DNA of 64,000 nt from Gammaproteobacteria bacterium (GTDB lineage Bacteria; Pseudomonadota; Gammaproteobacteria; UBA4575), in NCBI GenBank assembly GCA_965221955.1, contig CBDCTA010000002.1:64001-128000 (forward strand). Direction: 5' to 3'. Made by a program: the position numbers and the translations under genes. The notes under the pieces were generated by a model, which searched no databases, had not been told where the DNA came from, and saw only the letters and a program-made list of their open reading frames with translations. Position 1 is the first letter of the stretch; every line of letters begins with the position of its first letter. Below, piece by piece: positions 16,484 to 63,177 of the stretch.

Positions 16484-16498
16484 GCGTTATATAAAGTT

Positions 16499-18721: not shown

Positions 18722-19398
18722 CTACATAATTTTTAATATATTATCTATTCTACTCGTAGTGTATGGTCTAAGTATGTCTTGGATTTCAGCTGCAGTGGTA
18801 TTAATTAAATCTATCGAAATGTCACCATGTCCTTGTAATATAAACAGACAATCATTTGTGTCTGTTGTAGTTTTGGTTTTATCGCATTGTCGACAATCAA
18901 GTCTGCACAGAATTTCGTTATCATCGTCGATGTAACAATATTCACCTTTATTAATACTGTTGTGGTTTATTTCTTCCCTAAGGGGATGAATTGTTCGTCA
19001 CCGTTTGTAAAACAAAGTCTCACATTTCCACTGATATGCTTTATATCATGAGCACCGATAGAGATTCTGTTCTTAATTGCAACGTAATTATAAATATCTA
19101 CTAGAAAATTAATGGGTCTCAAAGATTTATGTTTATATAGAATCCTTATTAAACTTTCTGGTGAAGCTAATAATGTTTTATCAGTAATACCAATAGTTTC
19201 ATGTAACTTTCTATATCCTGATATTTTCGGATCACATTCTAAGTTTTCAAGTGTATGATCGTATAATAATTGTGCGTAGAAGCTTTCAATCTTGTTCCGT
19301 ATGTTTTCATCGTGAGTATCGTTTTCAATTCCATGGATTAGTAGAAATGCAACCTTTATCCCTAATGCAGAAACATCATCACATATTTTAAAATTCAT
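18722..19398 (-). pseudogene. B3/4 (PheRS-beta editing-like) domain gene split by a frameshift
   Basis: ORF 19398-18967 (SPESL, INFLVDIYN, GAHD, F.PLG) continues in another frame as GEYCYIDDDNEILCRLDCRQCDKTK..QG to TAG at 18722. Confidence 0.8.
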
Positions 19399-19424: not shown

Positions 19425-20081
19425 CTAAATTGGGAACATATTTAATAGAGTAGTTGATGAATAAAGCATTTTCATTCCTACTAAAATGGCTAGAGCACCT
19501 GTAAAAACTTTAAAATATTTAAAAGGTATAAATTTAATTTTACGATGCAAAGGCATCGTCATAAGAATAGAAAGGAAAGACATGCAGATAATCAAGCCAA
19601 TACTAAATAAAACAATATAAGTAAACTTTAAATAAATTGAATCAATCGTTGTGGTAAGAAGCGCAACTATTAAACCAGAACCTGCTGCGCCGTGTAATAA
19701 ACCAATACTTAGAGACTTTAAGGTGAGCCGCGTTTTATTGTTATCTTCTATAACCGTGTTTGTCGAATATTTATTTTCTTTTGTAGAAAAAAGGATTTTG
19801 GCTTTTTTAATCACATCGATTCCCATCCAGACAAGTACAGCACCTACTAAAAGCTCAAAAAAGACGAAGACACTTTTATCAATTTCAATCTGTAAACCCA
19901 TCAAAATCATACTGAAGAGTAATAATGTAATTGTATGACCAATTCCCCATATGGCGCCTTGCTTAGCAGTGGCAGATACCGAATTAGATTCTGTAGAAAC
20001 CATTAATACAGCTGCAATATGATCTGGTTCGAAGGCATGACGGATGCCTAAGGTAATGGCTAAGAGTAGTAAGACAGTCAT
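19425..20081 (-). CDS. Nickel transporter-like urease accessory protein (UreH/NiCoT-like)
   Basis: RHAFEPDH, WGIGHT and GLLHGAAGSG motifs; last gene of the urease cluster. Confidence 0.82.
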   Translation of the reverse strand: MTVLLLLAITLGIRHAFEPDHIAAVLMVSTESNSVSATAKQGAIWGIGHTITLLLFSMILMGLQIEIDKSVFVFFELLVGAVLVWMGIDVIKKAKILFSTKENKYSTNTVIEDNNKTRLTLKSLSIGLLHGAAGSGLIVALLTTTIDSIYLKFTYIVLFSIGLIICMSFLSILMTMPLHRKIKFIPFKYFKVFTGALAILVGMKMLYSSTTLLNMFPI

Positions 20082-20088
20082 ATGCTTT

Positions 20089-20898
20089 TTATTTTTTTCT
20101 AATATTGGGTTTGATTCCAACCAATGATTCTCTAATGATCAGCCATGCTTGAAGCATTGTTTTCTTAATTGCATCACCATCAGTTGCTAAAAATTTAATT
20201 ATAATCCCGCAATTATTCGGAAATTCAGAAACACCCCCATAAATTTCTGGATTGGTGCTAATGTATTTTTGCAGTGGTTCAAACAATTCATTATAAGTGC
20301 CTGACCGATTTACAATAGAGATCGTACCCATGCCAATATAATGTTGATTTGCTTGCAAAAAGTTTTTTGGATTAATTAAATAAACATCTTTTGCCAATAA
20401 TTTGTTATTTTCAGAATAAATTTGTAAATAGCTATTTAATTTGTTGAATAAATGATCTTTACCTTTAAGGAAATGAAGTAAGAACGCATCAGAAACGACT
20501 GCGGTACTTGTTTCATCTGCATATACATTAATCGTCGAGCTTAAAGTAGATTTTGGGAATAGAATCAAAGGGTCTGACACGTATTCCGTGTAAGCATAAT
20601 CTTTTGCATTTACATTTACAGTTTGATGAGCAATGCCATTTGTCATTCCATGAACGATGGTTGAAGCCTGTGTTGTTACATGGCTAAATGAATTGGGGTT
20701 TGCTACAACATTCGTAGTTAGATTTTCATTTTCATAGATTCCTCCAGATGCAGATTGAATATAAATATTAGCCATTCCAGGTGGATCATTTTCAAAGTAT
20801 TGCGTTCTGCAAACATGAAAAGGGTAGGAGGCAAATTGATTCTCAAGATAGGTTTTACCATCTACACTCTTGGAGAATTCAAGTGATAAATTACTCAT
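20089..20898 (-). CDS. ureD: Urease accessory protein UreD
   Basis: SGG and TTQAST motifs; operon context. Confidence 0.85.
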   Translation of the reverse strand: MSNLSLEFSKSVDGKTYLENQFASYPFHVCRTQYFENDPPGMANIYIQSASGGIYENENLTTNVVANPNSFSHVTTQASTIVHGMTNGIAHQTVNVNAKDYAYTEYVSDPLILFPKSTLSSTINVYADETSTAVVSDAFLLHFLKGKDHLFNKLNSYLQIYSENNKLLAKDVYLINPKNFLQANQHYIGMGTISIVNRSGTYNELFEPLQKYISTNPEIYGGVSEFPNNCGIIIKFLATDGDAIKKTMLQAWLIIRESLVGIKPNIRKK

Positions 20899-20922: not shown

Positions 20923-21549
20923 TTACTTGAACAATACGTTTTCAATAATATGTTCAGCGACCTCTTTAATCCCATCACCCGTTTTACAATTGGTTAGTAC
21001 CAAAGGTTTATTGCCTCTTACTTGTTGACCTTCTTTAACCATTAAGTCCACATCTGCACCGACATATTTAGCGATATCTATTTTATTAATCACTAGCAAA
21101 TCAGATTGCACAATCCCTGGGCCTCTTTTACGTGGAATGTCATCACCTTCCGAGGTGTCAATAACAAACATCCAATAGTCAACAAGATCTAATGAAAATG
21201 TTGATGCAAGATTATCTCCACCACTTTCTATTAAAATTAAATCAAGGTCTGCAAATTCTTGATCCAAGCGGTCGGCGGCTTGAATATTTAAAGTTGGATC
21301 TTCACGGATAACCGTATGAGGGCATGCGCCTGCTTCTACTGCAACGACACGTTCAGGTGCAAGCAAACCGGATTGCTGCAACCGTTTAGCATCTTCTCTA
21401 GTTACTAAATCATTGGTAACAATTGCAAGCTCATTTCCTCTTTCTTTAAAATATGGAATTAACTGCTCAATTAAAGCCGTTTTGCCTGAACCAACAGGTC
21501 CGCCAATACCTACTCGTGCAGGCCCGTTTGTTTTTGGTACTGCGTTCAT
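20923..21549 (-). CDS. ureG: Urease accessory GTPase UreG
   Basis: [23 protein letters not shown]. Confidence 0.95.
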
Positions 21550-23258
21550 CGGAGCATGTAACGTTGTGTGAGTGGAAGCGTTTTAGCAGGCTCACAAGTT
21601 GCTAACTCACCATCTACAAATACATCAAAGGTTTCAGGATTAACGGTTACCTTAGGACAACAATCATTATGTAGCATATGGCTTTTATTCAGTTTGCGTG
21701 TACCGTGTGCAGGTAAATTCACTTTTTGAAGTTGTAATTTTTCTCCAATATTTGCATCAACTGCTGATTGGTTAACAAAATTTGCACTTAAATGCTGTTT
21801 GGCGTTTCCAAAAGCGCCCCATTGAGGTCGCATTGCAAGTGGTTCGCATGTCATTAATGATGCCGCACTGTCTCCCATTGCTGACCAAACAATAAATCCG
21901 CCTTTAATGATCAATTCTGGTTTAATACCAAAAAACTCCGGCCTCCATAAAACGACATCACCGATTTTTCCTTTCTCTAACGAACCGATATAGTCATCAA
22001 TGCCAAAAGTACGTGCAGCATTAATCGTATACTTTGCGATAAATCGCTTAATTCGTTCATTGTCACCACGTTTGGTAGTTTCTTCCGCAAGTCTTCCACG
22101 TTGGTCTTTCATTTTGCTTGCAAGTTGCCATGTTCGACAAATGACTTCATTAATACGACCCATGCCTTGGCTATCGGATCCCAACATTGAGATTGCACCA
22201 AGATCATGCATTACATCTTCTGCGGCAATGGTTTGTGCACGAATTCGACTTTCTGCAAAGGCAACATCTTCAGGAATAGCAGGATTTAAATGATGACACA
22301 CCATGGTCATATCTAAATGTTCGTCAAACGTGTTAACGGTATATGGATTTGTAGGATTGGTAGAAGAGGGGAGACAATTATATTCGCCTGCTACACGAAT
22401 AATATCGGGAGCATGTCCACCACCTGCACCTTCAGTGTGATACATATGTATGGTTCGACCATTAATGGCAGCTAAAGTGTTTTCCACAAAACCACTTTCA
22501 TTCAATGTATCAGTATGAAGTTGTACTTGATAATCTAAATCATCGGCAACGGATAGGCAGGTATCGATGACCGCAGGCATTGCGCCCCAGTCCTCATGAA
22601 TTTTAAGTCCTATGCAGCCTCCCGCGAGTTGGTCAATGATAGATCGAGGTTTGGATGTATTGCCGCGCCCTAAAAATCCAAAATTAATGGGCCATTGTTC
22701 CGAGGCCTGTAACATCTTGCCTACATTCCAAGCACCGCCACAATCAATACCAACTGTGATGGGACCAAGTGATCCACCAATCATAGTAGTGATGCCCGAA
22801 CTTAATGCGTGTTCGCATAACTGAGCACTATCAAAGTGAACGTGTACATCAATTCCTCCAGGAGTAGCAATTAATCCTTCGGCATCGCGAACCGTTGTTG
22901 CAGCTGCGCAAACTAACTCAGGATGAACGTTGTCCATCGTGGCTGGGTTACCAGCTTTACCTACGCCAACAATTTTTCCTTCTTTAATTCCAATGTCTGC
23001 TTTGACAATCCCTAAAACAGGGTCAATTACTAATGCATTACTAACCAACATATCGAGTGACCCTGCTGCACTGTCATAACCTGGTGTTAAACCTAAGCCG
23101 TCACGTAAAGTTTTGCCGCCACCGTGTAAGCATTCATCTCCAGGCACTGCATAGTCATGTTCTACTTCCGCGAGTAATGATGTATCTCCTAATCGAACAG
23201 CATCTCCCTTTGTAGGTCCATACATTACGGCATATTCTTTTCTAGAAATCTTAATCAT
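21546..23258 (-). CDS. ureC: Urease alpha subunit homologue (divergent)
   Basis: [47 protein letters not shown]. Confidence 0.93.
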
Positions 23259-23260: not shown

Positions 23261-23959
23261 TTATGCCCCTTTAAATCCGCGAGTTTTGGCTAAATGTAAA
23301 GCTTCTTGTTTTTTCACTTCACTCGATGTTGAACCATTAGTTAAGCTGTTTAATCCGTAAATTTCTCCAGCGCCTCCAAAATCAACCAATGCGACTTCTT
23401 TGCTTTCTCCTGGTTCAAATCTAACCGCCGTTCCAGCAGGAATATCTAAATGCTTTCCAAATGCATCTTCACGTTTGAAATCTAATCCAGGGTTCACTTC
23501 AAAAAAGTGGAAATGACTTCCTATTTGTACAGGGCGGTCACCTGTATTTAATACTTTCACTTTAATTGATTTTTTACCTTCATTAATTTTTACATCACCT
23601 TCACCAGGTATAATCTCTCCTGGGATAACATCATCCTTTTTAGATTTTTTCTTGCCTGCACGTATAGGTTCATGCACAGTCACCAACTTTGTTCCATCTG
23701 GGAAAGTTGCTTCAACTTGAAGCATATGCATCATATCGCCTACACCTGGCATGACGTCATCCGTGCTGAGTAAGGTTGAACCATAACTAATCAATTCTGC
23801 TACAGAACGTCCTTCACGTGCGCCTTCTAATATTTCATCTGCGATGATAGCTGTAGCTTCAGGATGATTTAGTGCTAAGCCTTTTGCTTTTCGTTTTCTG
23901 GCTAGCTCTGCGGCAGTGTAAATTGTTAATCGTTCTAATTCAGTTGGTGTTAACAGCAT
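23261..23959 (-). CDS. ureAB: Fused urease gamma/beta subunit
   Basis: [21 protein letters not shown], then [17 protein letters not shown] and GTAVRFEPG. Confidence 0.95.
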
Positions 23960-23980: not shown

Positions 23981-24661
23981 TCAATTAGCAAACAATCTAG
24001 AATCTGCATGTTCATGACGCATCGATGCAATGTCAGCGAACGGTGTAAAAGCATGTATCTCTTCAATTGCAGGAATGGGCCATTGTGTAATTTCTAGTAT
24101 CAGCGATCGAAATGTAGTTAAACTATTTTGGCAATCAATATGTCCAATTAAACCAAGTCGTAAAGCAGCGCCTAAAACTGAAACACAAAAGTTATAAGCG
24201 GACAGGATCAAAATAGATTTTTTAGATAAGCCAAGAGAACTCCAAATCAAACCTTGTGATATGGACAAATGTCCAAGTGCATTATTTTTGTAAATAAGGC
24301 TTAGGTATTTCTGTGCGGCTGCGTTGTCTAATTTACTATATGTAGTTAGTAAGGCATTCCCTAATCTTTTTGAACCTTCTCGTAATTCACTCGCAAGCGT
24401 CATGCATTCAATCAGACGATCCATTTCAATTACTTTTTCTAAATCATTACCATTTTCAATGGTGTGTGCTAAAACGACTCGTTCAAACGGACCCCATCTT
24501 TCTACGAGTTGATTTTCAATGAAATCATTTACGCCCGTAATAGAAGTAACAATTTCATCTTCTTTTAACATTTCCAAACCCCAAGAAAATGACACAGCAC
24601 CTGATGGGAAAAAGCTGTCCCCATGCTGCAAAAGCGTGAGTAATTGTTCTTCTTCAGTCAT
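23981..24661 (-). CDS. ureF: Urease accessory protein UreF
   Basis: DSFFPSG...SWGLE and C-terminal RHE....RLFAN; ATG 24661 overlaps the ureE stop. Confidence 0.9.
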   Translation of the reverse strand: MTEEEQLLTLLQHGDSFFPSGAVSFSWGLEMLKEDEIVTSITGVNDFIENQLVERWGPFERVVLAHTIENGNDLEKVIEMDRLIECMTLASELREGSKRLGNALLTTYSKLDNAAAQKYLSLIYKNNALGHLSISQGLIWSSLGLSKKSILILSAYNFCVSVLGAALRLGLIGHIDCQNSLTTFRSLILEITQWPIPAIEEIHAFTPFADIASMRHEHADSRLFAN

Positions 24662-25103
24662 GGTCTGCAATAGTAATTTTATTTTGGTCAAAGAAATCTT
24701 TTAATCGATCAAGATAAATTTCTTTTGGGCTATCTAATGCAATATCAAGATGTTTGTTTTCAAATTTAACACGCCAGTGCATATTGCCAGCGAAATAGCC
24801 AAGTTCGATTGCAGTTGAAATATCTTTAGGCTGTAGTGATAACCATTGATCTTCAGCCATTTTTACAACAATAGCGCGATCAGTTTCTAATAATAATACT
24901 GCGCCATTTGATAATTTATTTTCGCGTGAAATAACTACAGCACAATCTGTACCTTGATCCGTTTGAGCGCGGAAACGTCTACGCTGTAAATTAGCGTGAT
25001 CTAAAACAATATATTCGACTTTATTTTGATGTGATAAATCGTGAAGTTGACCTGATAGATTCGAATCATGTGAATGACCAAGGACTTGATTAAGTTGAAT
25101 CAT
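24654..25103 (-). CDS. ureE: Urease accessory protein UreE, no His-rich tail
   Basis: R.RAQTD.G and LGY..GNMHW (Ni-binding GNxH). Confidence 0.85.
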   Translation of the reverse strand: MIQLNQVLGHSHDSNLSGQLHDLSHQNKVEYIVLDHANLQRRRFRAQTDQGTDCAVVISRENKLSNGAVLLLETDRAIVVKMAEDQWLSLQPKDISTAIELGYFAGNMHWRVKFENKHLDIALDSPKEIYLDRLKDFFDQNKITIADHD

Positions 25104-38498: not shown

Positions 38499-39194
38499 CT
38501 AGATTGTTAGATGTTGCTCTACTAATTCTTCGGTTAATTCACTTATTGGCCCTTGTGCAACAGATCGTCCGATATCCATGATGACAAACATATCTGCCAG
38601 TTGTTTTGCTATCTTTATGTGTTGCTCGGTCAGAACTAATGTCATTCCCATCTCTTTATTCAAGTGGTGTAGAGTGTTTTGAATTTCTTCTACTATATTT
38701 GGCTGAATACCTTCTGTAGGTTCGTCAAGTAATAATACTTTAGGGTCAGTAGCTAGAGCACGCGCAACCGCTAGTTGTTGTTGTTGACCACCTGATAGTA
38801 ATCCGGCGCGCTTATCTAGATTATCAGCAAGATAGGGAAATAATTTTAAACATGAATCGGGTAGTTTATTCTCATTATCATTTCTTGCAAATGTACCAAG
38901 TACAATATTTTCGCGTACACTAAATTTACCTAGTATCCTTCGACCTTGAGGGACATAGCCTAGCCCTGCATGTGATCGTAGATGTGTTGCTTTTTTAGAA
39001 AAATCTTCTCCATTAATTTTCAGTGTTCCCTCCATGCTAGTAGTAAGACCCATTATAGTTTGAAGTAAGGTTGTTTTACCTACTCCATTTCTACCCAATA
39101 CACATAGACATTGACCTTCTTGTAAAGAAATACTTACGTCTTGGATAATGGGTGTTTTTCCATAATAGGAAGTAACATTTTCAAGTTCTAACAT
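38499..39194 (-). CDS. ABC ATPase, UrtE/LivF-like
   Basis: GRNGVGKT, LSGGQQQQL, LDEPTEGIQP. Confidence 0.92.
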   Translation of the reverse strand: MLELENVTSYYGKTPIIQDVSISLQEGQCLCVLGRNGVGKTTLLQTIMGLTTSMEGTLKINGEDFSKKATHLRSHAGLGYVPQGRRILGKFSVRENIVLGTFARNDNENKLPDSCLKLFPYLADNLDKRAGLLSGGQQQQLAVARALATDPKVLLLDEPTEGIQPNIVEEIQNTLHHLNKEMGMTLVLTEQHIKIAKQLADMFVIMDIGRSVAQGPISELTEELVEQHLTI

Positions 39195-39195
39195 G

Positions 39196-39939
39196 TTAGT
39201 TAATTCCTTCCGTGCCTAGATACACTTCTTTGACTTTTGGATGCTGCTCAATTTCTGATAAGGTTCCTTCAGCAAGCATTTTTCCTTGGTGCATTACTGA
39301 AATTACATCTGCAATGCTTTTTACAAAGGACATATCGTGCTCAACTACAACTAGAGTGTGATCACCTTTTAATTCTTTAAAAATCTTAGATGTTTTTTCT
39401 GTTTCTTGTTCTGTCATTCCTGCCGTTGGCTCATCCATTAACAACAATCTTGGTTTTTGCATCAACACCATGCCTATTTCTAGCCATTGTGTTTCACCAT
39501 GTGAGAGCAAGCCTGCAATATCATCTAAGCGATTTCCTAAGCCAGCTAATTCAATAATTTCATTAAAATGTTTTTTTCCTTTTTTATTAGAAAAAGGATT
39601 CATGTTTTGAAAAGGGCCACGCTTTTCTGTGAGCGCAACTTGAAAATTTTCACGTACAGTGAGTTCTTTAAAAACAGCTGGAATTTGAAACTTACGCCCA
39701 ACTCCTAAGCCTACAATTTGTCTTTCAAGTAGTTTAGTGATGTTTTTACCATCAAAATGTACAGTCCCTGAGGTAAGCTTTTGTCGACCAGTTATTAAAT
39801 CTAAAGAAGTAGTTTTACCTGCACCATTAGGACCAATTAAACAACGTAACTCACCTTCATTTACACTGAAATCAAATCCATTAACGACTGAATAATCATT
39901 ATAAGTTTTTGTAACTTCTTTTAATTCTAGTATTGCCAT
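39196..39939 (-). CDS. ABC ATPase, UrtD/LivG-like
   Basis: GPNGAGKT, RKFQ.P, LSHGE.QWLEIGM, VVEHDM. Confidence 0.92.
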   Translation of the reverse strand: MAILELKEVTKTYNDYSVVNGFDFSVNEGELRCLIGPNGAGKTTSLDLITGRQKLTSGTVHFDGKNITKLLERQIVGLGVGRKFQIPAVFKELTVRENFQVALTEKRGPFQNMNPFSNKKGKKHFNEIIELAGLGNRLDDIAGLLSHGETQWLEIGMVLMQKPRLLLMDEPTAGMTEQETEKTSKIFKELKGDHTLVVVEHDMSFVKSIADVISVMHQGKMLAEGTLSEIEQHPKVKEVYLGTEGIN

Positions 39940-41018
39940 TATGCTGCCTGCTTGATTCCGTTGTTGTTACTAGAAAACTTACCTAAAATTGTTTCAAATA
40001 GGCCAGTAAGACCTTTTGGAAGAAATAAAACAACAGCAATGAAAACTGCGCCAAGAATTATAAGCCATAGTTGTTGAAATTCATCGCCAGCATAGCTTTG
40101 GCCTAAATTAATTAAGAACGCTCCTAAAATTGCGCCAAGTAATGAAGTACGTCCACCTACTGCAGCCCAGATTACCATTGAAATACTTAGTGTAATTTCC
40201 ATTGATGTCGGCGAAACATATTGGACTATCATCACATACAAAATACCAGCGCAAGCAGCAATAAAGCCAGAAAGAGTGAATAATACAGTTTGATAATATG
40301 CAACGTTGTAACCTAAAAATCGTGCACGCTCAGGATCATCTCGCATCGCTTGCACAATGAGGCCAAATTTTGTATGTAGCAAAAATTTTGTGCCTAAAGT
40401 TAGAAAAGCTAAGAAACCTAAACAAATCCAATAAGCGGTACTGCTATATGGATCTATTTGTGTACCAAATATTTCAAAAGGAGAGGGAGGTGAAATGCCA
40501 TTAAAACCAGCCGTAAAAGGTTGCATATCGTATACAACTGCATACCAGGCAGCTAACATGGCTAAAGTCATAATGGCGACAAACACGCCAACGACTCTTG
40601 CTTGAAACATCATATATCCAAAAAATAAAAAGAATAAAGTAGGGATGCCGAGTGCTAAAGTTAATCCCATTGGGGTTGACCAGAACGGTTCCCAAACTAA
40701 AGGTAATGTTTCTAGCTCATTCGTCAACATAAAGGTTGGGATTGGGTCGGACTCAGGATCTTGAAACTGCATTTGCATAGTGGCACCCATTCCGTATGCA
40801 CCCATGCCAAAAGCAATGCCTTGCCCCAAACTTAATATTCCGCCATACCCCCAGACTAGTGACACTGAAACGGCAGTGATGGCAAAGACCAGGTAACGTG
40901 CATATTGGTTTAGCGAAAAAGGGTTATCAAATATAAAGGGTAAAAGTCCTAACAATACAAATATTGCTATATAAACTGCCCATTGTGCTTTGCGGTTGTG
41001 ATAAAGGTTCCCATTCAT
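39939..41018 (-). CDS. ABC permease, UrtC-like
   Basis: WGYGGILSLGQG..FG.GAY, A.RD...R..FLGY, VIW.AVGGR. Confidence 0.9.
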   Translation of the reverse strand: MNGNLYHNRKAQWAVYIAIFVLLGLLPFIFDNPFSLNQYARYLVFAITAVSVSLVWGYGGILSLGQGIAFGMGAYGMGATMQMQFQDPESDPIPTFMLTNELETLPLVWEPFWSTPMGLTLALGIPTLFFLFFGYMMFQARVVGVFVAIMTLAMLAAWYAVVYDMQPFTAGFNGISPPSPFEIFGTQIDPYSSTAYWICLGFLAFLTLGTKFLLHTKFGLIVQAMRDDPERARFLGYNVAYYQTVLFTLSGFIAACAGILYVMIVQYVSPTSMEITLSISMVIWAAVGGRTSLLGAILGAFLINLGQSYAGDEFQQLWLIILGAVFIAVVLFLPKGLTGLFETILGKFSSNNNGIKQAA

Positions 41019-41060
41019 GTTGCTAATTCTCCATCTGCTATTGTTATTTTCATTTAATGC

Positions 41061-41963
41061 TTAGCGTCTTGTAGCTCCTTCTGAAATGAGTCCTTGAGGA
41101 CGAAACCTGAGAAACACAACAATTAAAGTGAATAATATGAAACGCGCAAATGTTTCATTGGTAAAGTATGAAAAGATTGAGCTTAGCTCGCCAAGAATGC
41201 CTGAGCTGAACATGCTGCCAACAAGTCCAATTCCACCCACCACAACAACAAGAAAGGCTTCGACAATATATCCCATTCCCATATCAGGAAATAATGTTTT
41301 TAGTGCACCAAACAATGCTCCGGCTACACCTGCTAATCCTGCTCCATAAGCAAAGGTTAAACTGTAAATTTTATTCGCATCAATGCCAAATGATGCTGCC
41401 ATTTCTTTGTCTTGCATTACGGCGCGTACTCTGATCCCTAAAGTAGTTTTATACATTAGGTACCATGTCACGGCTCCGATCGCTATTGCAAATATAATAA
41501 TGAAAAGCCGTACACCCGATAAGTGAATGAAATTAGCTTCTATTTGGAAATCAAGCCATTTAGGGACACCAACATATTTAGGTTCGCCGCCAAAAATTAA
41601 ACGAATCCCTTGTATTAAAATTAGAGACAACCCCCATGTTGCTAAAAGTGTATCTAGCGGGCGCTGATACAGTGTCCGGATTATCCCTCGTTCTATTGCC
41701 CATCCAATTAATGCCATCACAATAAACGCCAGAGGTAAGCAAAGAAGAAATGGAACACCTAAAAAATGTTGAAAAACATAGGTTGTATATGCGCCTAGCA
41801 TTATGAATTCGCCATGCGCCATATTGATGACTCCCATGGCACCATAAATGATGGTCAAGCCTAGAGCTGCAATGAAAAATATACTGGCGAGGCTAACACC
41901 TATAAATAATGAATTAAGAAATGGATAGAGAGAAAAGGGAGTCCAAAAATCATGTACGCTCAT
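41061..41963 (-). CDS. ABC permease, UrtB-like
   Basis: GVINMAHGEF.MLGAY, RPLDTLLATWG.SL, RPQGL. Confidence 0.9.
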   Translation of the reverse strand: MSVHDFWTPFSLYPFLNSLFIGVSLASIFFIAALGLTIIYGAMGVINMAHGEFIMLGAYTTYVFQHFLGVPFLLCLPLAFIVMALIGWAIERGIIRTLYQRPLDTLLATWGLSLILIQGIRLIFGGEPKYVGVPKWLDFQIEANFIHLSGVRLFIIIFAIAIGAVTWYLMYKTTLGIRVRAVMQDKEMAASFGIDANKIYSLTFAYGAGLAGVAGALFGALKTLFPDMGMGYIVEAFLVVVVGGIGLVGSMFSSGILGELSSIFSYFTNETFARFILFTLIVVFLRFRPQGLISEGATRR

Positions 41964-42087
41964 TACCTATATTCCTCCTGAAAATAACTTGAGTACTGAA
42001 AGAGCCAAGGCTATAGCTCTTATTTAGTTATCCAGTTTTATGTTTTTATTTGAACGAGCACGTAATAATTATTATTTTGTGCTCTAA

Positions 42088-42180
42088 TATTTTTTCCATC
42101 ACAGCTCAAATAAAGAAGCGATGGAAAAAATAACTAAGCCCACATGATACGGCGACTTATTCACAGTCGCCGTATATGTG
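42088..42180. other. Two hairpins between the binding-protein and permease genes
   Basis: ATACGGCGACT/AGTCGCCGTAT within 42141-42180; TATTTTTTCCATC/GATGGAAAAAATA at 42088-42132. Confidence 0.65.
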
Positions 42181-42197
42181 ATCAAAAAAACACCTTC

Positions 42198-43529
42198 TTA
42201 AAGTACGTTCTTCTTAATTTTTCCATCAGGAGTATGTAGGCCATCTGCTTTACATACACCGCGTTCTGGGTAGATAGACATCGGATCGGGTGGTACATGC
42301 TCATCCGCAGCTTTCACAATTGTAAACTGACCGTCAGCACCACATTGACCAATTTTTGGTTTCAACCAAATGTTGAAGTTATCTGGATCAATCCAAACTT
42401 TACCTTCTGGTGAAACATCATCTTCAACTGTAATGTTGCCTGAAACATCGCGAATCATACGTGGGGTAATTTCTTCAATGTTACCAGTCTCTTTTAATGC
42501 CTTCTCTAAGCCATATTTAAATACATAGAACGACAGATAAGTCTCTTCCATATTATAGTGGGTTACACCGCCACCGCCGTATTTACTAGATAAATAACCG
42601 TCTACAAACTTGTGGTTAGTCGGGTTATCTAATGTTTGGAAATAAGGGGCTGATAAGAAGTGACCTGCACCTGCTTCAGCGCCCATTGCACGGATTTCGA
42701 TTTCACCCGTAGTTAATGCAGCAATTGGCAATTTGTCTGACTTAAAACCTTCTTGTAAGAACTGTTTATGCATAGCGATATCCGAATCACCCACAACAGT
42801 TGAGAAGATAAAGTCTGGCTTTTGTTGGCGAACCTTATTGAAAATTGGAGTGAATTCAGAGCCACCTAGAGGCACGTAGTCTTCACCAACAATTTCGCCG
42901 CCTGCACGTTCTAACCAAACTTTAGCGTTTTTATTTGATTCTTTTGGCCAAATATAGTTTGAGCCAATCAAGTAACACTTCGGTCCAAATTCTTTTGCCA
43001 TGAATGGAATTAAGTCAAACGAGTGTTGATTCGCTAATGGGCCAGTATTAATGATATTTTGCGTGCACTCACGACCTTCATAACAGGTTGGGTAGTAGAA
43101 AAGATGGTCACGTGCCATCACAATTGGCGCTACCGCTCTACGGCTAGCAGAGGTATATCCACCAAATGTTGCAATTACACGATCTTTTAAGATTAGTTGA
43201 CTAATTTTTTCTGAATACACTTTAATATCAGACTTGGCATCAATCACAACGGGCTCAAGCATTTTGCCTGCAACACCACCCGCAGCATTAATTTCGTCAA
43301 TTGCATACAATCCTACTTGCGTAGAATCATTTTCAATTACGGCTAAGTTGCCTGTTTGTGACCAGAGCAATCCAACTTTTATTGTTTTATCACCTTTTTT
43401 AATCCATGGAGCTGCAGCAGTTGCTTTAGGAATGTATAGGGATGGAAATCCCACAGCAGCTGCAGTTGCGCCAACTGCGGATCCTTTTAAGATCGCACGT
43501 CGCTTCTGACTGATAGGCTTATCTTTCAT
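42198..43529 (-). CDS. Tat-exported amide/urea-type ABC substrate-binding protein (UrtA/AmiC fold)
   Basis: RRAILK Tat signal; GGYTSASRRAV, YPTCYEG, GSNYIWPKESN. Confidence 0.9.
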   Translation of the reverse strand: MKDKPISQKRRAILKGSAVGATAAAVGFPSLYIPKATAAAPWIKKGDKTIKVGLLWSQTGNLAVIENDSTQVGLYAIDEINAAGGVAGKMLEPVVIDAKSDIKVYSEKISQLILKDRVIATFGGYTSASRRAVAPIVMARDHLFYYPTCYEGRECTQNIINTGPLANQHSFDLIPFMAKEFGPKCYLIGSNYIWPKESNKNAKVWLERAGGEIVGEDYVPLGGSEFTPIFNKVRQQKPDFIFSTVVGDSDIAMHKQFLQEGFKSDKLPIAALTTGEIEIRAMGAEAGAGHFLSAPYFQTLDNPTNHKFVDGYLSSKYGGGGVTHYNMEETYLSFYVFKYGLEKALKETGNIEEITPRMIRDVSGNITVEDDVSPEGKVWIDPDNFNIWLKPKIGQCGADGQFTIVKAADEHVPPDPMSIYPERGVCKADGLHTPDGKIKKNVL

Positions 43530-48359: not shown

Positions 48360-49088
48360 TTAGACTTCTGGGGCAAATGCGGCTAATGCAGAGTGTCCTA
48401 TAATTTGACCATTAAATTCTTGCATGGCTTCAAGCACGCAATCCCAACAATATTCTGCTGAAGCACTTTCAACTAGTACTAAATAATTAGTTAATGCATT
48501 GAGATCATTGCGAATAATTATTGCACTGATGCGTGCCAGAGAAGTTTGTGCGACCATATTATTTCCAAACTTATTAGTGCGTAAATCAATTGCGCATAGT
48601 TTTGAAAACATATCTGGTGTGAAAATTCCGGAAATCGAAAAACACGCATGACTTTCTTGGCGTGGCATGATAAACCCGCATGCTTCAGTACTTTGCGTGA
48701 AATCCTGATGCCATGTGTCTTCAAGTGTACTCGGTACATTTGTTTCATGTTTAATGTTGTCTAAAATCAAAATATCGTTACTTCCAAGTCTTGCGATTAC
48801 ACAGCCATTCGAATCATTAAAGGAAGTATTTATGTTTGCTGGAATTTGGATATTATTTTTTATTAGCCAGTCGCACGTACCAAAGCCTTTGAAGCCAATT
48901 CTTTGTATATAGCTTAAATCACTTAGAGCTAAATTATTTGCAAAGTTAATCTCTTCCTTTGGGTCTGTTATGGAAGAAACGACAGCATAATTGTTCCTTT
49001 CTGACCAAGTGATTTCTGGCTCGTCAAACTTTCGATATTGAAAACTACGTCGTGGATATTGAGTAGGACTTATTACAGAATCATTCAT
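48360..49088 (-). CDS. mgdD: N-methylglutamate dehydrogenase subunit D (SoxG-like)
   Basis: DLS...R.GFKG, KLCAIDLR, AQT..AR; last gene of a soxBDAG-like set. Confidence 0.8.
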   Translation of the reverse strand: MNDSVISPTQYPRRSFQYRKFDEPEITWSERNNYAVVSSITDPKEEINFANNLALSDLSYIQRIGFKGFGTCDWLIKNNIQIPANINTSFNDSNGCVIARLGSNDILILDNIKHETNVPSTLEDTWHQDFTQSTEACGFIMPRQESHACFSISGIFTPDMFSKLCAIDLRTNKFGNNMVAQTSLARISAIIIRNDLNALTNYLVLVESASAEYCWDCVLEAMQEFNGQIIGHSALAAFAPEV

Positions 49089-49093
49089 AGTTG

Positions 49094-52000
49094 CTACATT
49101 TCTTGGCGTTTATTCTCAGGGTCGTAAAAAGGAACACTGCATACTGTTGCAGTTATAATTTCACCATTAGTAAGTTTAATATCAATTTTAGAATTTTCTT
49201 CTGATTCATCTGGCAAGACAAATGCCAAGCCAATAATCTTGTTCAGGCTAGGTGAGTGCGAAACAGATGTAACACGACCTGCAATTTCATTGTTTTTTAT
49301 CACCAAATTACACTCTTGCGGCATTGGTGAATCGGATGAAAGAGTAAATCCCACTAATTGGCGACTAAGAGGTCGATTATTTATTACTTCAATTGCACGT
49401 TTCCCTTGGAAGAAAATTTTTTTCTTAGCAATGGCCCAACCCATATTGGCTTCTTGTGGGATGGTTAGGCCATCTGTATCTTGGCCAACAATTATATGGC
49501 CTTTTTCAAGACGTAGAAGTCGCTGTGCTTCTACACCGAAAGGACAGATATCAAATTTTTCGCCTGCCTTCATAAGTGAATCCCATAATGCCTCTCCTTG
49601 ACTGGTTGGTACATGAATTTCATAACCTAATTCACCGACGAATCCGACTCGCAGTAAACGTGCCGGAATATTAGCAATACGTCCAGTTCGAACTTCCATA
49701 TACGGAAACTGTTGCGCACCCAGCTGAATATCATCCGTTAAGCTGGCCAAAACTTCACGAGAATTGGGTCCTGCCAAATTTACTGCAGCATATGCTGAAG
49801 TTACATTAGCAATGTCAACATTCAGATTCCATTCGCAATTCCAACGCAACATATTACGATAAACACCATCTACACCTCCGGTAGTTGCGGTTACATAAAA
49901 CTGCTGCTCATCCATGCGGCATGCAACACCATCATCGATAATTGCTCCAGTAGAATCAGTCATTAATACATAACGTGAACGATTGATAGGTTGCTTTGTA
50001 TAGGCAAAGGTATACATACGGTTCAAAAACTCTGCAGCATCAGGGCCGCGAATTTCTAATTTTCCTAAGGTCGAAACATCTACAATCCCTACGTTATTTC
50101 TTACTGCTAAATTTTCATTTTTTATACTTCCCGCTTTATTTTCTTGAACTCCATAATATGCTGGTCGCAACCATAAACCTGCAGGCATCATTTGAGCATT
50201 ACATTCTAAGTGACGGTGATGTAACGCTGTATGTTTAACAGGTTGATAAGCTTTTCCTGCAAGGTGTTGAACGTATTCTGGTGAAAAAGGTGGTCTTTGT
50301 GTTGTAAGGGTCACACTTTTTAATGAACGTTTTGCTTGTTTTGTTACTAAACGCATATTATTAAGTGCAGAAAATTTTCCTTGTGATGGCCCCATTACTA
50401 CAGTGGAGTAACGTTTCACTAATTCTAAATCATCGTAACCATCTTTAACGGCGTTAATGATGTCTTTAATTTGTAAGTCTTCATCATAGTCGATGAATTC
50501 TTTACCTTTTGGGTGAGGAAATATAGGCCAAGGGTAGTTTTGCTCGCTTACAAGAGTATCTTTAGTTACTTTAGGTGGCTCTTTGCTAGACAATCCAGCT
50601 TTTTTTGCAGCACTCCATCCAGCATATTTGCCATCAGTTAAAACTGCATCCAGATCAAATACAGAATTTAAAGAACCTGTGATTACAGATTGTCCATGAG
50701 TGGGAAGTTGTTTGACTTTTAATATTGCATCAGTCTCATCATATTCTAATAGACCTCCAGAGTGACAAAGTATTTGTGCTGCTGGAGAATATCCGGTACA
50801 CATGCAAACGACATCACAATCGAATGTTCTTGGCTTTCCTGATGTAGTACCTTCGCTTGTAATTTTGTCAACGATTGCGTGTGTAATGCTGCGTTTTCCT
50901 GCTCCTGGAATTACTTCATAAACAGTAGACCCATATAGTATTTGAACTTTATTGTTTTTAATAGCTGCGGCAAGCGGAGATAGTTTTGGTTCTGTGCGCA
51001 TTTCTACTAGAGCCGATACACTAATGCCATTTTCTATTAAATCAAGTGCTACACCATAGCCATCGTCATTTGCTGTGAGTACAATCGCACGTGAGCCAGG
51101 AGCAACCCCATATAAATTAATTAAACGTTGTGCAGCAGAACCAAGCATTACACCTGGTAAGTCGTTATTTCGAAATACTGCAGGTTGTTCAATTGAACCC
51201 ATTGCGGCTATAACAGTATTTGCACGGATTTTTAACATTCGATTTTCACACATTACGGCAAGCCAATTATCTGCAAACCAACCGGTGCACTGAGAGTTTA
51301 TGTGTGTAGTTATTAGGGAATGTTTGGATGCAGCAGAAACAAGTTTTTCTCTTAAAGATATGGTTAAACTTTTGTCAACATTAAATCTCGCATAATTTAA
51401 TGACCCACCTAACAGAGGATTTTCATCAATCAGAATTACTTCAGCCCCAGCATCTGCAGCTTGCAATGCAGCGGTCAATCCTGCAGGCCCAGCCCCTATA
51501 ACAGCAACATCGCAAAACCGATATGCTTTATCACTTTTGTAAGGTTTGGCGTTTACATCTACTTTTCCTAATCCAGCAAAATTACGAATTACTGAATCCC
51601 AATATTTCCAAACACCTTTAGGTTTATAAAAAGCTTTGTAATAAAACCCAACAGGTAAAAAACGGCTAAAGAGTTCTACAACTCTACCCCAATCATTTCT
51701 TAGAGTTCCAAATACATTTTGAGCTTGTACGGTTAATCCTTTCGATAGGGGAGTGGTATCTGCTCGCACACTGGGTTCATCATTAATTTGAACTAATGTA
51801 TTGGCATCACGACCTGCCATACTTAAAATCCCACGTGGACGATGGTATTTAAATGAACGAGAGAGTAATAGTGTGTTGTGCGCTGCTAATGCGCTCGCTA
51901 TAGTATCTCCCTGGAAACCTTTATAGGTTTTACCATTAAATGTAAAAGATATCGTTTTGCTACGATCAAGATATAAGCCTTTTGGTTCAAGTAAGCGCAT
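49094..52000 (-). CDS. mgdC: N-methylglutamate dehydrogenase subunit C (SoxA-like)
   Basis: GDTIASAL, RSFKYHRPRG, GAGPAG and GcvT-like C-terminus (DVSTLGK, GELGYE, LRLEKG). Confidence 0.88.
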   Translation of the reverse strand: MRLLEPKGLYLDRSKTISFTFNGKTYKGFQGDTIASALAAHNTLLLSRSFKYHRPRGILSMAGRDANTLVQINDEPSVRADTTPLSKGLTVQAQNVFGTLRNDWGRVVELFSRFLPVGFYYKAFYKPKGVWKYWDSVIRNFAGLGKVDVNAKPYKSDKAYRFCDVAVIGAGPAGLTAALQAADAGAEVILIDENPLLGGSLNYARFNVDKSLTISLREKLVSAASKHSLITTHINSQCTGWFADNWLAVMCENRMLKIRANTVIAAMGSIEQPAVFRNNDLPGVMLGSAAQRLINLYGVAPGSRAIVLTANDDGYGVALDLIENGISVSALVEMRTEPKLSPLAAAIKNNKVQILYGSTVYEVIPGAGKRSITHAIVDKITSEGTTSGKPRTFDCDVVCMCTGYSPAAQILCHSGGLLEYDETDAILKVKQLPTHGQSVITGSLNSVFDLDAVLTDGKYAGWSAAKKAGLSSKEPPKVTKDTLVSEQNYPWPIFPHPKGKEFIDYDEDLQIKDIINAVKDGYDDLELVKRYSTVVMGPSQGKFSALNNMRLVTKQAKRSLKSVTLTTQRPPFSPEYVQHLAGKAYQPVKHTALHHRHLECNAQMMPAGLWLRPAYYGVQENKAGSIKNENLAVRNNVGIVDVSTLGKLEIRGPDAAEFLNRMYTFAYTKQPINRSRYVLMTDSTGAIIDDGVACRMDEQQFYVTATTGGVDGVYRNMLRWNCEWNLNVDIANVTSAYAAVNLAGPNSREVLASLTDDIQLGAQQFPYMEVRTGRIANIPARLLRVGFVGELGYEIHVPTSQGEALWDSLMKAGEKFDICPFGVEAQRLLRLEKGHIIVGQDTDGLTIPQEANMGWAIAKKKIFFQGKRAIEVINNRPLSRQLVGFTLSSDSPMPQECNLVIKNNEIAGRVTSVSHSPSLNKIIGLAFVLPDESEENSKIDIKLTNGEIITATVCSVPFYDPENKRQEM

Positions 52001-52023
52001 AATAAGATTGTTAATAAATTCGA

Positions 52024-52311
52024 CTACTCAGTTTTTTTAAACGCAACTCTCTGCATATATAATTCATGTGCAGGATAGGTTTTAATAATTTCTTCGGTCA
52101 CTGTATTACGTTCAGCGATGAACCAATAAGATGTGGGAACATGCATCCACCATTCACGTACAACACCTTTAGTATTATTTTCCATGAACAAATATTCAGC
52201 CCATTCGCGATCTGTTCCATTAACTGGATCTGGTATTGATTTTACTTCTCCACCACAAATAAATTCGGAGATGTTACGTAAACCATTCAATGGACAGGGC
52301 ATTAATTTCAT
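52024..52311 (-). CDS. mgdB: N-methylglutamate dehydrogenase subunit B (SoxD-like)
   Basis: CPLNG.RNISEF..GGE, EWW.H, RNT.T.EI. Confidence 0.88.
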   Translation of the reverse strand: MKLMPCPLNGLRNISEFICGGEVKSIPDPVNGTDREWAEYLFMENNTKGVVREWWMHVPTSYWFIAERNTVTEEIIKTYPAHELYMQRVAFKKTE

Positions 52312-52333
52312 CGTAATAGAATTTTTTTAAATA

Positions 52334-53575
52334 TTAATGACCAACAGAAGCAGCACCACGTTCACCTACTTGTTCGAAACGATAGAAGCGTTCTAATTCA
52401 AATGGCTTTAGCAAATCAGGAAGTTTGTCTGTAGCTAAAGTTTCTGCCATGCGCTTACCACATACGGGTGTAGCTTTAAATCCCCAGGTGCCCCATCCGG
52501 CATCAATATAGTAATTTTGTATTGGTGTGAAACCCATAACGGGACTAAAATCAGGAGTCATATCAGTAATACCTGCCCATTGTCGTAATATTTTCAATTT
52601 TCCAACAAATGGGAAAAGTTCCAATAGATGCATCATTAGCTCTTCTTTGAACTCCAAAGTAGAACGTGTGGAATAGAGAGAATAAGGGTCGCTAGAAGCG
52701 CCCATTACTAACTCGCCACGAGAAGATTGGGAAACATATACATGTAATGAACCAGAAACGACAATAATGTTTAAAAATGGTTTAACAGGTTCTGTAACAC
52801 ACGCTTGTAAGGGAATAGATTTTATAGGTAGTTTGAATCCAGCAAGTTTCGAAACTTCTGAACTTAAACCGGCTACTGCTTGTAATACTTTTCCACAACG
52901 AATATCACCACGATCTGTTTGAACACCAACAACGCGATCATTTTCAAACTTAAAACCTGTTACTTCCGTATGTGTATGAATTTCTATACCGCGATCTGAA
53001 GCACCGCGAGCATAACCCCATGCTACTGCATCATGTCTAGCGATAGCACCTGGAGGATGGTGCAATGCCCCCATGATTGGGTAACGTACATCTTGGCTTA
53101 AGTTTAAGTGTGGACATAGCTTTGCTAGTTCGTCTGGATAAACTAACTCAGAATTAATGCCAAGATGCTTGTTTACTTCTGCTCGCCAACGAGATGTACG
53201 TATTGCTGCATCAGTGTGTGCAAGTGTTAAATGACCTCTTTCAGAGTAGAGAATATTGTAATCAAGTTCATTGCTTAAATTTTGAAATAGTTTTACTGAT
53301 TCATCATAAAAACGTACACCTTCGGGTGTTAAATAATTTGATCGTACGATTGCTGTATTACGAGCAGTATTACCACCTGCAAGATAGCCTTTTTCTAATA
53401 CCGCAACATTAGTGATTCCCCATTGCTTAGCCAGGTAGTACGCGGTGGCTAGACCATGACCACCACCACCTATAATCACAATGTCATAACTAGGCTTAAG
53501 CGAGGCAGGTTTTTTGAAATGCCGTTCTGAAGGGTGGGCTTTACTTAAGCCATATTTTAATAGCCCAAAAGGCAT
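52334..53575 (-). CDS. mgdA: N-methylglutamate dehydrogenase subunit A (SoxB-like)
   Basis: GGGGHG, GNTARNT, ARHDAVAWG, GWGTWGFK; adjacent to gmaS. Confidence 0.88.
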   Translation of the reverse strand: MPFGLLKYGLSKAHPSERHFKKPASLKPSYDIVIIGGGGHGLATAYYLAKQWGITNVAVLEKGYLAGGNTARNTAIVRSNYLTPEGVRFYDESVKLFQNLSNELDYNILYSERGHLTLAHTDAAIRTSRWRAEVNKHLGINSELVYPDELAKLCPHLNLSQDVRYPIMGALHHPPGAIARHDAVAWGYARGASDRGIEIHTHTEVTGFKFENDRVVGVQTDRGDIRCGKVLQAVAGLSSEVSKLAGFKLPIKSIPLQACVTEPVKPFLNIIVVSGSLHVYVSQSSRGELVMGASSDPYSLYSTRSTLEFKEELMMHLLELFPFVGKLKILRQWAGITDMTPDFSPVMGFTPIQNYYIDAGWGTWGFKATPVCGKRMAETLATDKLPDLLKPFELERFYRFEQVGERGAASVGH

Positions 53576-53687
53576 TCTTAATTACAACTATAATTCTAAA
53601 ATATTCATTCTATAAATGTACTTACATAAAAAGAATTTTAAAAATATTGTGAAGTACATTTTAATATAATTGCTAATTACTATAGAT

Positions 53688-54995: not shown

Positions 54996-55099
54996 GTTGA
55001 CTCTCCGTTATTTTGTTCTTATTTGCTTAGCGCTAAGTATGTTAGAGCTACTTGCATATGAAACACATTATTTTACTTGCATGCAATTATTCTACTATC

Positions 55100-56431: not shown

Positions 56432-56447
56432 AGCAAAACACCCTTGT

Positions 56448-57134: not shown

Positions 57135-57186
57135 GTTAGTTTATAAATTTTTAAATTTATTTTGCAGTGATACGTTCATTTGTTTG

Positions 57187-62450: not shown

Positions 62451-62452
62451 TT

Positions 62453-63055: not shown

Positions 63056-63111
63056 TACCTGTAATTTCAGGTTGTTATAAGAGTGCAAATACTATACAGG
63101 AGAATGACTTC

Positions 63112-63140: not shown

Positions 63141-63177
63141 GTTATGTAACACATAGCATTCTAGCTAGGTAGAGTTT

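Follow-up and report, generated by a model that had tools for sequence, protein, structure and literature searches.

A short-loop urease lineage with a rebuilt pocket wall in bacteria carrying methylamine-pathway genes

Introduction

Canonical nickel ureases, exemplified by the three-subunit Klebsiella aerogenes UreABC (PDB 2KAU/1FWJ) and the enzyme of Sporosarcina pasteurii, bind urea in a pocket that has been described residue by residue. In K. aerogenes, the pocket is enclosed by A167, H219, E220, D221, G277, C319, H320, R336, A363, and M364, the urea nitrogens donate hydrogen bonds to the backbone carbonyls of Ala167 and Ala363, and the C-beta of Ala366 touches the Ni(2)-bound water (PMC7433671). 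Here we describe a gene for a urease alpha subunit, UreC, in which the wall of this pocket on the amide-nitrogen side is rebuilt. The gene lies on a 64,000-nucleotide stretch of a gammaproteobacterial contig (CBDCTA010000002.1 of assembly GCA_965221955.1, positions 64,001 to 128,000), hereafter the window; coordinates, and residue numbers of the query UreC, refer to the window gene. We assign a probability of about 0.5 to the reading that this UreC belongs to a second, anciently separated nickel-urease lineage (V-type, or short-loop) that still acts on urea.

The variant shares with the canonical enzyme its fold, with a template-modelling (TM) score of 0.94, as well as the nickel ligands, the carbamylated lysine, the equivalents of His219, Asp221, and Arg336, the flap, and the maturation proteins UreDEFG. 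It differs in a loop that is three residues shorter and in the replacement of Ala363 by Gly, of ICPQ by DSAQ, of GKGN by GRGN, and of the segment GDPNASIPTPQP. In addition, its gamma and beta subunits are fused, its genes follow the order ureE-F-AB-C-G-D rather than ureD-A-B-C-E-F-G, and, unlike canonical clusters, it usually has no adjoining UrtA that scores above the family cut-off.

Fused chains and second ureases are known from other bacteria. The two-chain urease of Helicobacter pylori, composed of UreA (fused gamma-beta) and UreB (alpha), shares the fused chain with the variant. However, its operon and context differ, the solved Helicobacter ureases are 53-54% identical to the window UreC, and the window alpha subunit fails the Helicobacter-type model NF010591; the Helicobacter loop is taken as canonical here on the variant clade's internal identity of at least 75%, not on a reading of the loop. 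The second urease of Helicobacter mustelae, UreA2B2, is not known to need accessory genes. Its structure is titled as iron-containing (PDB 3QGA), whereas the variant keeps UreDEFG and a nickel permease. In Brucella, ureC2 is described as more related to the ureC of distant species (PMC2492869). Both Brucella ure-2 and UreA2B2 are paralogous second ureases, and they are likened to the variant on that ground alone. The 'URE type 2' cluster, borne by two plasmids of Paracoccus yeei (one of them pYEE13493P4, CP038076; the records are CP038076 and CP038086), is reported to have a fused gamma-beta subunit, a different accessory gene order, fewer transporter genes, and a separate origin, and knockout of the type 1 ureC abolished ureolysis on Christensen urea medium despite the presence of type 2 (PMC11578231). 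URE type 2 thus coexists with an active type 1, and the variant occurs in the same genus, in Paracoccus limosus. When the fused subunit was compared with a plasmid collection by tblastn, the listed matches on P. yeei plasmids were to separate ureA and ureB only, not to a fused gene.

The setting of the variant also recalls two amide-utilization systems, amiEBCRS of Pseudomonas aeruginosa and fmdCABDEF of Methylophilus. Like them, the variant urease is accompanied by AmiC/AmiR, an amidase, and a Urt-like transporter, whereas these systems, as described, have no urease of their own with a rebuilt pocket.

Family Assignment and Catalytic Residues

The gene and its conserved flap are placed as follows.

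21546..23258, minus strand: ureC, alpha subunit of the variant ('short-loop', V-type) urease, 570 aa
22290..22298, minus strand: flap Cys321-His322-His323, the same as in canonical ureases

Among PDB sequences, canonical K. aerogenes UreC is the best match of the window protein, over its full length (E 4e-205, HMMER), and the identity to K. aerogenes chains is 55-56% (Foldseek). The window UreC passes the urease-alpha equivalog TIGR01792 (EC 3.5.1.5) with 821.1 bits against a cut-off of 680 and scores 866.6 bits in the subfamily model NF009686 (cut-off 354), but it fails the Helicobacter-type large-subunit equivalog NF010591 (753.7 bits vs. a cut-off of 1083). In alignments, all ligands of the dinickel center are kept (H139, H141, K219, H248, H274, and D362), with the bridging K219 located in KIHEDWG together with H221 and D223. 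Aligned to K. aerogenes His219, Asp221, Arg336, Cys319, and His320, the catalytic and flap set is kept as well (H221, D223, R338, and C321-H322-H323). An earlier note on this stretch, here called the original prediction, had described the metal and catalytic motifs as intact, which holds for the nickel ligands, K219, and the flap Cys-His-His alike.

A Rebuilt Wall of the Substrate Pocket

Four segments of the gene depart from the canonical sequence around the active site.

22734..22778, minus strand: shortened 15-residue loop (residues 161-175) after barrel strand 2, in place of the Ala167 loop
22155..22178, minus strand: SDSQGMGR, with nickel ligand D362 and Gly365 replacing K. aerogenes Ala363
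22818..22844, minus strand: HVHFDSAQL, with nickel ligands H139/H141 followed by the clade-specific DSAQ for ICPQ (canonical HIHFICPQQ)
21840..21875, minus strand: second clade-specific segment of 12 residues (462-473), replacing the canonical GDPNASIPTPQP

By sequence alignment, eight of the ten K. aerogenes pocket residues are identical in the window UreC, and both alanines are affected. The Ala167 loop is three residues shorter than in K. aerogenes, differs in sequence, and has no assignable Ala; the residue that stands in for Ala167 depends on the aligner (G170 with HMMER, D172 with MAFFT, and V169 with L-INS-i). Replacement of Ala363 by Gly retains the urea-binding backbone carbonyl at that position. 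The shorter loop, which the original prediction had placed at about 22735-22780, and the change from SDSQAMGR to SDSQGMGR were thus both correctly recognized, and the statement that A167 and A363 line the urea NH2 site agrees with PMC7433671. Calling the canonical loop 'near-invariant' was slightly strong: its length is constant, whereas some positions vary.

Other changes are fixed in the clade, including GRGN for GKGN and GAM for GTT after HEDW. A comparison of 89 variant with 24 canonical UreC sequences, the latter a small set taken mostly from one order with some Alphaproteobacteria, gave 55 alignment columns fixed differently between the two. They cluster after strand 1, in the strand 2 loop, after strand 3, after HEDWG, at Gly365, and in the segment that replaces GDPNASIPTPQP. 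Strands are assigned from the secondary structure of an AlphaFold2 model and the textbook topology of the urease barrel. The wall on the Ni(2) and amide-nitrogen side is rebuilt through the loops after barrel strands 1, 2, 3, and 8 together with residues 462-473, and the flap side of the active site is untouched.

The AlphaFold2 model, based on a 38-sequence alignment, has a predicted local distance difference test score (pLDDT) of 85.6 and a predicted TM score of 0.91, and it superimposes on solved ureases with a TM score of 0.94 and a root-mean-square deviation of 2.7 A (Foldseek). The residues at which pLDDT drops under 50 (165-172 and 461-482) coincide with the two clade-specific segments, so that the model is uninformative on pocket size. 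The structure model proposed as a check on the original prediction thus confirms the overall fold, whereas its pocket loop is unreliable. Of the enlarged pocket that had been postulated, the remodeling is real, lies on the Ni(2) and amide-nitrogen side, and is fixed in the clade; the larger size is conjectural. Foldseek searches of the PDB returned canonical ureases only, none above 56% identity, and since any two clade members share at least 75% identity, none of them has a solved structure. The label 'urease' may be wrong for the window gene.

Distribution and Phylogeny

Of the 120 nearest proteins in a collection of 5.8 billion, which are 84-98% identical to the query, 119 combine the short loop with SDSQGMGR, and the pair is also present in 79 of 80 related loci from species-representative genomes; the remaining locus, L061, has both urease types, variant and canonical. 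A tree of 133 distinct UreC sequences (FastTree, with an insecure midpoint root) places the 89 variant sequences in one clade and the canonical ones in another, and the phylogeny suggested with the original prediction therefore sets the two groups apart. The rebuilt pocket is a clade signature and not the oddity of a single gene.

Overall identity within the clade is 75-99% across phyla, and its lineages span Alpha- and Gammaproteobacteria, Burkholderiales, Chloroflexota, Actinomycetota, and Bacillota. Carriers at 75-80% identity include Methylobacterium, Methylorubrum, Methylophaga, Paracoccus limosus, Amorphus coralli, Pontibaca salina, Marinibaculum, Propylenella, Pelagibius, Beijerinckia, an Oceanobacillus, and metagenome-assembled genomes (MAGs) of Nakamurella and Chloroflexota. 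Plasmids carry the variant in Aminobacter (six records), Methylobacterium (four), Shinella (two), Ancylobacter, and an Acinetobacter. The clade is widespread and conserved, and it appears to be uncharacterized. In L061, a Burkholderiales MAG, both urease types lie inside one 17-kb stretch: positions 303-17399 hold a Urt-like transporter, an aliphatic amidase, the variant ure operon, and, about 4 kb downstream, canonical ureAB-ureC.

Short loops extend beyond this clade. Nearer subclades, at 64-69% identity, have the loop variants GGGSGPHALPIDGGS and GGTMGPLFAIDCGG; the loci concerned are L141 and L142 (8001-9710) and L143 and L144 (8001-9707), with different loop sequences. At L141 and L142, tblastn mapping placed only ureAB and ureC, and accessory genes were not found nearby. 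In deeper clades (40-52% identity), the flap has lost its Cys and its second His, although the short loop, the Gly, and every metal ligand are retained. These flap-less homologues (proteins P0123, P0126, P0127, P0129, P0130, P0134, P0147, and P0148, and locus L088) mostly score above the cut-off of the general 'urease subunit alpha' subfamily and below that of the equivalog. They may be nickel amidohydrolases. The short loop looks like a variable element of a diversifying superclade, of which the window type is the largest and most conservative member.

Operon Organization and Nickel Maturation

The ureC gene is embedded in a full set of structural and maturation genes, identified by Pfam unless another basis is given.

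23261..23959, minus strand: ureAB, fused gamma-beta subunit, 232 aa (Pfam Urease_gamma and Urease_beta)
23981..24691, minus strand: ureF
24654..25103, minus strand: ureE
20923..21549, minus strand: ureG (GTPase)
20089..20898, minus strand: ureD
19425..20120, minus strand: NicO-like nickel permease (Pfam NicO), which follows ureD in relatives too
18967..19398, minus strand: B3_4-domain gene (by comparison with L002), truncated to 143 aa from 221 aa in the relative L002
17075..18451, plus strand: Amt ammonium (and methylammonium) transporter adjoining the cluster

The fused subunit passes the two-chain fused-subunit model NF009671 (348.9 bits vs. a cut-off of 243). The operon order ureE-F-(AB fused)-C-G-D is clade-wide, in contrast to the order urtABCDE-ureD-A-B-C-E-F-G of canonical clusters in the same bacterial order. 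Among the 80 variant loci, many of which end at contig breaks that affect these counts, fused ureAB is present in 72, ureD in 71, ureF in 69, and ureE in 58. A HupE/UreJ protein occupies the nickel-permease slot on the Aminobacter plasmid, and the B3_4 gene follows the nickel permease or the variant cluster in L002, L003, L135, and L137. Dependence on a metal other than nickel is unlikely, given that a nickel permease and the full UreDEFG set are encoded; the predicted nickel dependence of the variant urease is well supported by inference from these genes.

On one side of the cluster, 18488-19398 and 17075-18451 mark a rearrangement breakpoint, where the Amt gene and a membrane open reading frame of 77 aa occupy the place of the Urt-like transporter of L002. 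On the other side (25423-31226, plus strand), the immediate neighbors of ureE are a SnoaL-like gene and a second, split set of the glutamate-synthase-like kind. This set consists of an amidotransferase, a fused protein of 653 aa with GXGXG and flavin mononucleotide (FMN) domains, and a GltD-like flavoprotein of 842 aa, and the arrangement is kept in the same-genus relative L135. Low G+C and split glutamate-synthase genes hinted at an origin in ammonia-oxidizing archaea, an idea ruled out by the relatives, which are MAGs of Gammaproteobacteria.

Coexistence with Canonical Ureases

In the genome scans, matches were classed by identity (variant, at least 78%; canonical, 50-61%), with loops not inspected one by one, and the scanned genomes are related to one another, so that p-values overstate. 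In the window genome (2.69 Mb, 96.6% complete), the variant is the sole UreC. The order to which it belongs (56 genomes, one family) includes 17 variant carriers, 7 with the variant only and 10 with another UreC; among the non-carriers, 20 have a canonical urease only and 19 have none. Within the window's genus, six species hold the variant only, five a canonical urease only, one both, and three neither. Outside the order, 3 of the 16 carriers checked have the variant only and 13, all ten cultured strains among them, another UreC as well. In a sample of 301 alphaproteobacterial genomes, 81 of which have a UreC, there are 11 carriers (4 with the variant only and 7 with another copy). Nine of the ten second copies inspected have canonical motifs, and that of Pontibaca is divergent. 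Redundancy, in the form of mutual exclusion between the two types, is weakly seen in the window's genus and absent in the order and in the Alphaproteobacteria sample. These patterns support the variant as a separate system, with its own operon type and frequent coexistence with canonical ureases, and not as a drifted copy.

Association with Methylamine-Pathway Genes

The window also carries genes of the methylamine pathway.

48360..58083, minus strand: methylamine (gamma-glutamylmethylamide/N-methylglutamate, NMG) genes

The NMG set comprises subunits of a sarcosine-oxidase-like dehydrogenase, a type III glutamine synthetase (GS-III)/GmaS-like ligase (53688-54995), and three glutamate-synthase-domain genes. 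Viewed in full (48360-59634, minus strand), it contains FMN, GXGXG, and amidotransferase domain genes, an XRE/cupin regulator, and an HAD hydrolase.

Within the order, the ligase is present in 17 of 17 variant carriers and in 3 of 39 non-carriers, and a subunit of the dehydrogenase in 17 of 17 and 2 of 39, respectively. The independent Alphaproteobacteria sample gives the same picture for the ligase (11/11 carriers vs. 35/290 non-carriers), also when the comparison is made with urease-bearing genomes that lack the variant (12/70; Fisher p 1e-7, uncorrected for relatedness). No variant carrier lacks GmaS, while GmaS occurs without the variant in 35 of 46 genomes of that sample. In two genera of the order, identical species hold the variant and the ligase (2 of 16 and 4 of 13). 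The presence of the variant is strictly dependent on methylamine-pathway genes in the genome.

Physical linkage is less uniform. The two genes are often near each other in the order, about 2 kb apart in four genomes, and the loci L006 and L007 have the GS-III gene as the immediate upstream neighbor of ureE, in the same orientation. In the five alphaproteobacterial carriers compared, ligase and variant are unlinked, either far apart or on different contigs. The Acinetobacter plasmid carries, in one direction, Amt, an XRE regulator, glnT, three glutamate-synthase-domain genes (glxBCD), urtA, and the variant ure operon. Many carriers use methylated amines, among them Methylobacterium/Methylorubrum, Methylophaga, Aminobacter, Paracoccus, and Ancylobacter. 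Methylobacterium with the NMG pathway is described as having about three urease copies, and all strains tested grew on urea, whichever enzyme was responsible (PMC5017803). The ties to methylamine and amidase genes fit amine release by the variant enzyme. The original prediction of a substituted urea or another amide as substrate is thus partly supported, and better by genomic context than by the pocket argument on which it was built.

Transport and Amide-Locus Context

Three further regions of the window concern the uptake and hydrolysis of urea or amides.

60267..61124, minus strand: UT-family urea/amide channel (Pfam UT, 186 bits; TIGR03441, 150.7 bits, below the cut-off of 274.6)
61293..64000, plus strand: amiC-like sensor, amiR (ANTAR) antiterminator, and the 5' part of an aliphatic amidase, at the window end
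38499..43529, minus strand: Urt-like ATP-binding cassette (ABC) transporter, with UrtB-E above NCBIfam cut-offs and a binding protein of 320 bits (UrtA cut-off 492.75)

In L002, a 99%-identical relative, the order is amidase, amiR, amiC, UT channel, ureE-F-AB-C-G-D, permease, B3_4 gene, and Urt-like transporter, with the UT channel directly upstream of ureE. The location of the UT-amiC-amiR-amidase block at 60267-64000 and the truncated B3_4 gene indicate that the region is rearranged in the window. Across the order, the UT channel is found in 11 of 17 variant carriers and in none of the 39 non-carriers, and in six genomes it lies 5-6 kb from the GS-III/GmaS-like ligase. The 80 variant loci include 43 with a UrtA/AmiC-family protein, 41 with ABC ATPases, 29 with UrtB, 29 with UrtC, 20 with AmiR, and 18 with an aliphatic amidase.

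Binding proteins mostly differ between the two types of cluster. Judged by the NCBI cut-off for UrtA (492.75 bits), all eight binding proteins beside canonical clusters qualify (526-576 bits), and so does the one adjoining ureE on the Acinetobacter plasmid (519.7 bits). In four complete genomes with both urease types, a UrtA above the cut-off adjoins the canonical cluster, and in two of these four a UrtA-like protein of 332-398 bits adjoins the variant cluster. Neither a UrtA above the cut-off nor a urea carboxylase was found in the window genome. A second Urt-like transporter beside amidases has been argued to carry amides and not urea (PMC3098086), and for the related Fmd transporter of Methylophilus, transport of urea as well as short-chain amides is described (PMC10781810).

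The aliphatic amidase was considered as a neutral control for confounding by a shared toolkit, and it proved to be strongly linked to the variant itself. In Alphaproteobacteria, it is present in 8 of 11 carriers vs. 2 of 290 non-carriers, usually 2-14 kb from ureC. With the amidase as a second strong associate, part of the pattern reflects a shared toolkit for small amides and organic nitrogen.

At 35070-37985 (minus strand), a protein of 799 aa is homologous to the large subunit of N,N-dimethylformamidase (Pfam DMFA2_C, 290 bits); an open reading frame of 149 aa lies upstream, and the transporter at 38499-43529 (minus strand) adjoins. On the other side of the transporter, 44034-48216 holds a two-component system paired with a second UrtA-like protein. 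The block at 35070-48216 has the appearance of a unit that takes up and hydrolyzes a small substituted amide.

Proposed Mechanism and Alternative Substrates

The enzyme would consist of a fused gamma-beta chain and an alpha chain. UreD, UreF, UreG, and UreE, fed by the NicO-type permease, would load two nickel ions onto carbamylated K219, with Ni(1) held by H248 and H274 and Ni(2) by H139, H141, and D362. The substrate carbonyl would bind Ni(1) and H221, the bridging hydroxide would attack, and flap His322 would assist the departure of the leaving nitrogen. We infer these steps of assembly and chemistry from conserved residues, and the activity and substrate of the variant enzyme are likewise what we infer. 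Its context suggests the role of hydrolase in a nitrogen-scavenging module for urea and short-chain amides, formed with AmiE/AmiC/AmiR, the Urt-like ABC transporter, and the UT channel in methylamine-using bacteria. The main substrate would still be urea, although the kinetics may be shifted or the range widened to take in small substituted ureas. Because the organism has no other urease, no UrtA above the cut-off, and no urea carboxylase, the variant would be its only route for urea. The TIGR01792 score, the catalytic residues, the maturation set, the genomes in which the variant is the sole urease, the UT channel, and the one UrtA are what we retain against the idea, in the original prediction, that the enzyme may not be a urease.

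Several observations weigh against a second lineage that hydrolyzes urea. A GS-III/GmaS-type gene is present in 28 of 28 variant carriers vs. 38 of 329 non-carriers, a tie that simple urea hydrolysis does not account for. The binding protein beside variant clusters falls below the UrtA cut-off in five of six cases (332-446 bits). All ten cultured carriers examined hold a second UreC homologue (50-57% identity), six of the seven further copies in Alphaproteobacteria are in the canonical identity range, and variant and canonical clusters are only about 4 kb apart in L061. The two types occur independently of each other in the order (Fisher p 0.77), and in the Alphaproteobacteria sample their association is positive (p 0.008), which argues against simple redundancy, although a different substrate does not follow from this alone. 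The P. yeei URE type 2 cluster, which is similar in its described organization and may belong to the clade, gave no ureolysis. Finally, a published assay of a clade member or a description of the loop variant was not found in a search of the literature outside subscription journals.

It is a real, if tentative, possibility that the rebuilt wall shifts specificity toward an N-methylated compound of the urea type, with release of methylamine. The physiological substrate would be N-methylurea (or perhaps dimethylurea), or else a small N-methyl amide, for example N-methylformamide. The unchanged nickel, hydroxide, and flap machinery would then yield methylamine together with ammonia and CO2, or with formate, the GmaS/N-methylglutamate pathway would take up the methylamine, and urea would possibly be a side substrate. 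Such a substrate would suit a site in which both amide-nitrogen alanines are affected and the Thr-rich canonical loop has given way to a more hydrophobic one (I-T-V-G-I-D), but the change of Ala to Gly retains the urea-binding backbone carbonyls. The loss of the flap Cys-His-His in related short-loop clades suggests that the loop is a specificity element. GmaS-like genes co-occur with the variant in both samples and a sarcosine-oxidase-like gene in the order, the GS-III gene is physically linked in L006, L007, and the Acinetobacter plasmid, many carriers are users of methylated amines, and the one-way dependency on GmaS resembles that of a peripheral enzyme feeding a central pathway. However, co-occurrence could reflect a shared nitrogen-scavenging toolkit, as the tie to the amidase is similar and much of the gene set lies in one region in the order; genome kinship also inflates the p-values. 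Variant-only genomes, moreover, have a UT channel beside the variant, and one locus has a substrate-binding protein above the UrtA cut-off. Jack bean urease has reportedly been studied with N-methylurea, formamide, and acetamide, going by the title of work by Dixon and colleagues from 1980, and we count this in favor of an N-methyl substrate. N-methylurea is not known to be a common natural compound, which counts against it, as do the facts that bacterial N-methylurea catabolism was not found among the literature results listed and that assays of clade members were not found in the literature.

Two other explanations are less probable. It is unlikely that the variant is a true urease whose ammonia is assimilated by GS-III and the three glutamate-synthase-domain genes under a nitrogen-limitation regulon, the rebuilt wall being neutral drift that was fixed early. 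The nitrogen island of the Acinetobacter plasmid (Amt, glnT-glxBCD, urtA, ure, and nirBD), the NCBIfam name of the ligase ('type III glutamate--ammonia ligase'), and the Amt gene adjoining the window cluster are consistent with it. The window ligase is grouped, however, with sarcosine-oxidase-like dehydrogenase genes typical of the N-methylglutamate pathway, and the rebuilt segments are almost invariant across phyla, with 55 fixed columns, which argues for selection and not drift. Very improbable is a cluster that yields no active enzyme and persists as a decaying or purely regulatory paralogue. Brucella ure-2 without measurable activity (PMC2492869) and P. yeei URE type 2 without activity (PMC11578231) would be precedents, whereas the variant has intact catalytic residues and maturation genes, an open frame in every copy, and very high identity across phyla, and it is the only urease in several complete genomes.

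Implications

The active site of urease, a textbook enzyme, is commonly regarded as near-uniform, yet one of its walls is rebuilt in the large, strongly conserved, and horizontally spread lineage described here. Genome annotations universally label the variant 'urease subunit alpha'. The conserved motifs IGKAGNP and HEDWG, in which the usual ureC primers lie, flank the rebuilt loop, so that amplicon surveys would count the variant as urea use. A kinetically or regulatorily distinct urease would account for the many bacteria that maintain two enzymes of this kind, whereas activity on methylated ureas or amides would provide methylamine metabolism with a new point of entry. Given how strictly the variant co-occurs with GmaS-type genes, the substrate question can be tested directly in tractable strains.

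Somewhat doubtful, in our estimate, is the more far-reaching claim that the short-loop lineage is a nickel amidohydrolase for N-methylurea (alkylurea or small N-methyl amide), with methylamine as the leaving group, and not a physiological urease. It would explain why the variant is found only in GmaS/N-methylglutamate genomes. Were it true, the urease family would have its first natural switch of substrate, a different reaction would be counted in hundreds of genome annotations and in part of the environmental ureC surveys, and the flap-less short-loop clades would be further nickel amidohydrolases.

Other Features of the Window

Away from the urease and methylamine genes, a sortase gene lies beside that of a VIT/VWA-domain protein (4592-7280, minus strand) in this Gram-negative genome.

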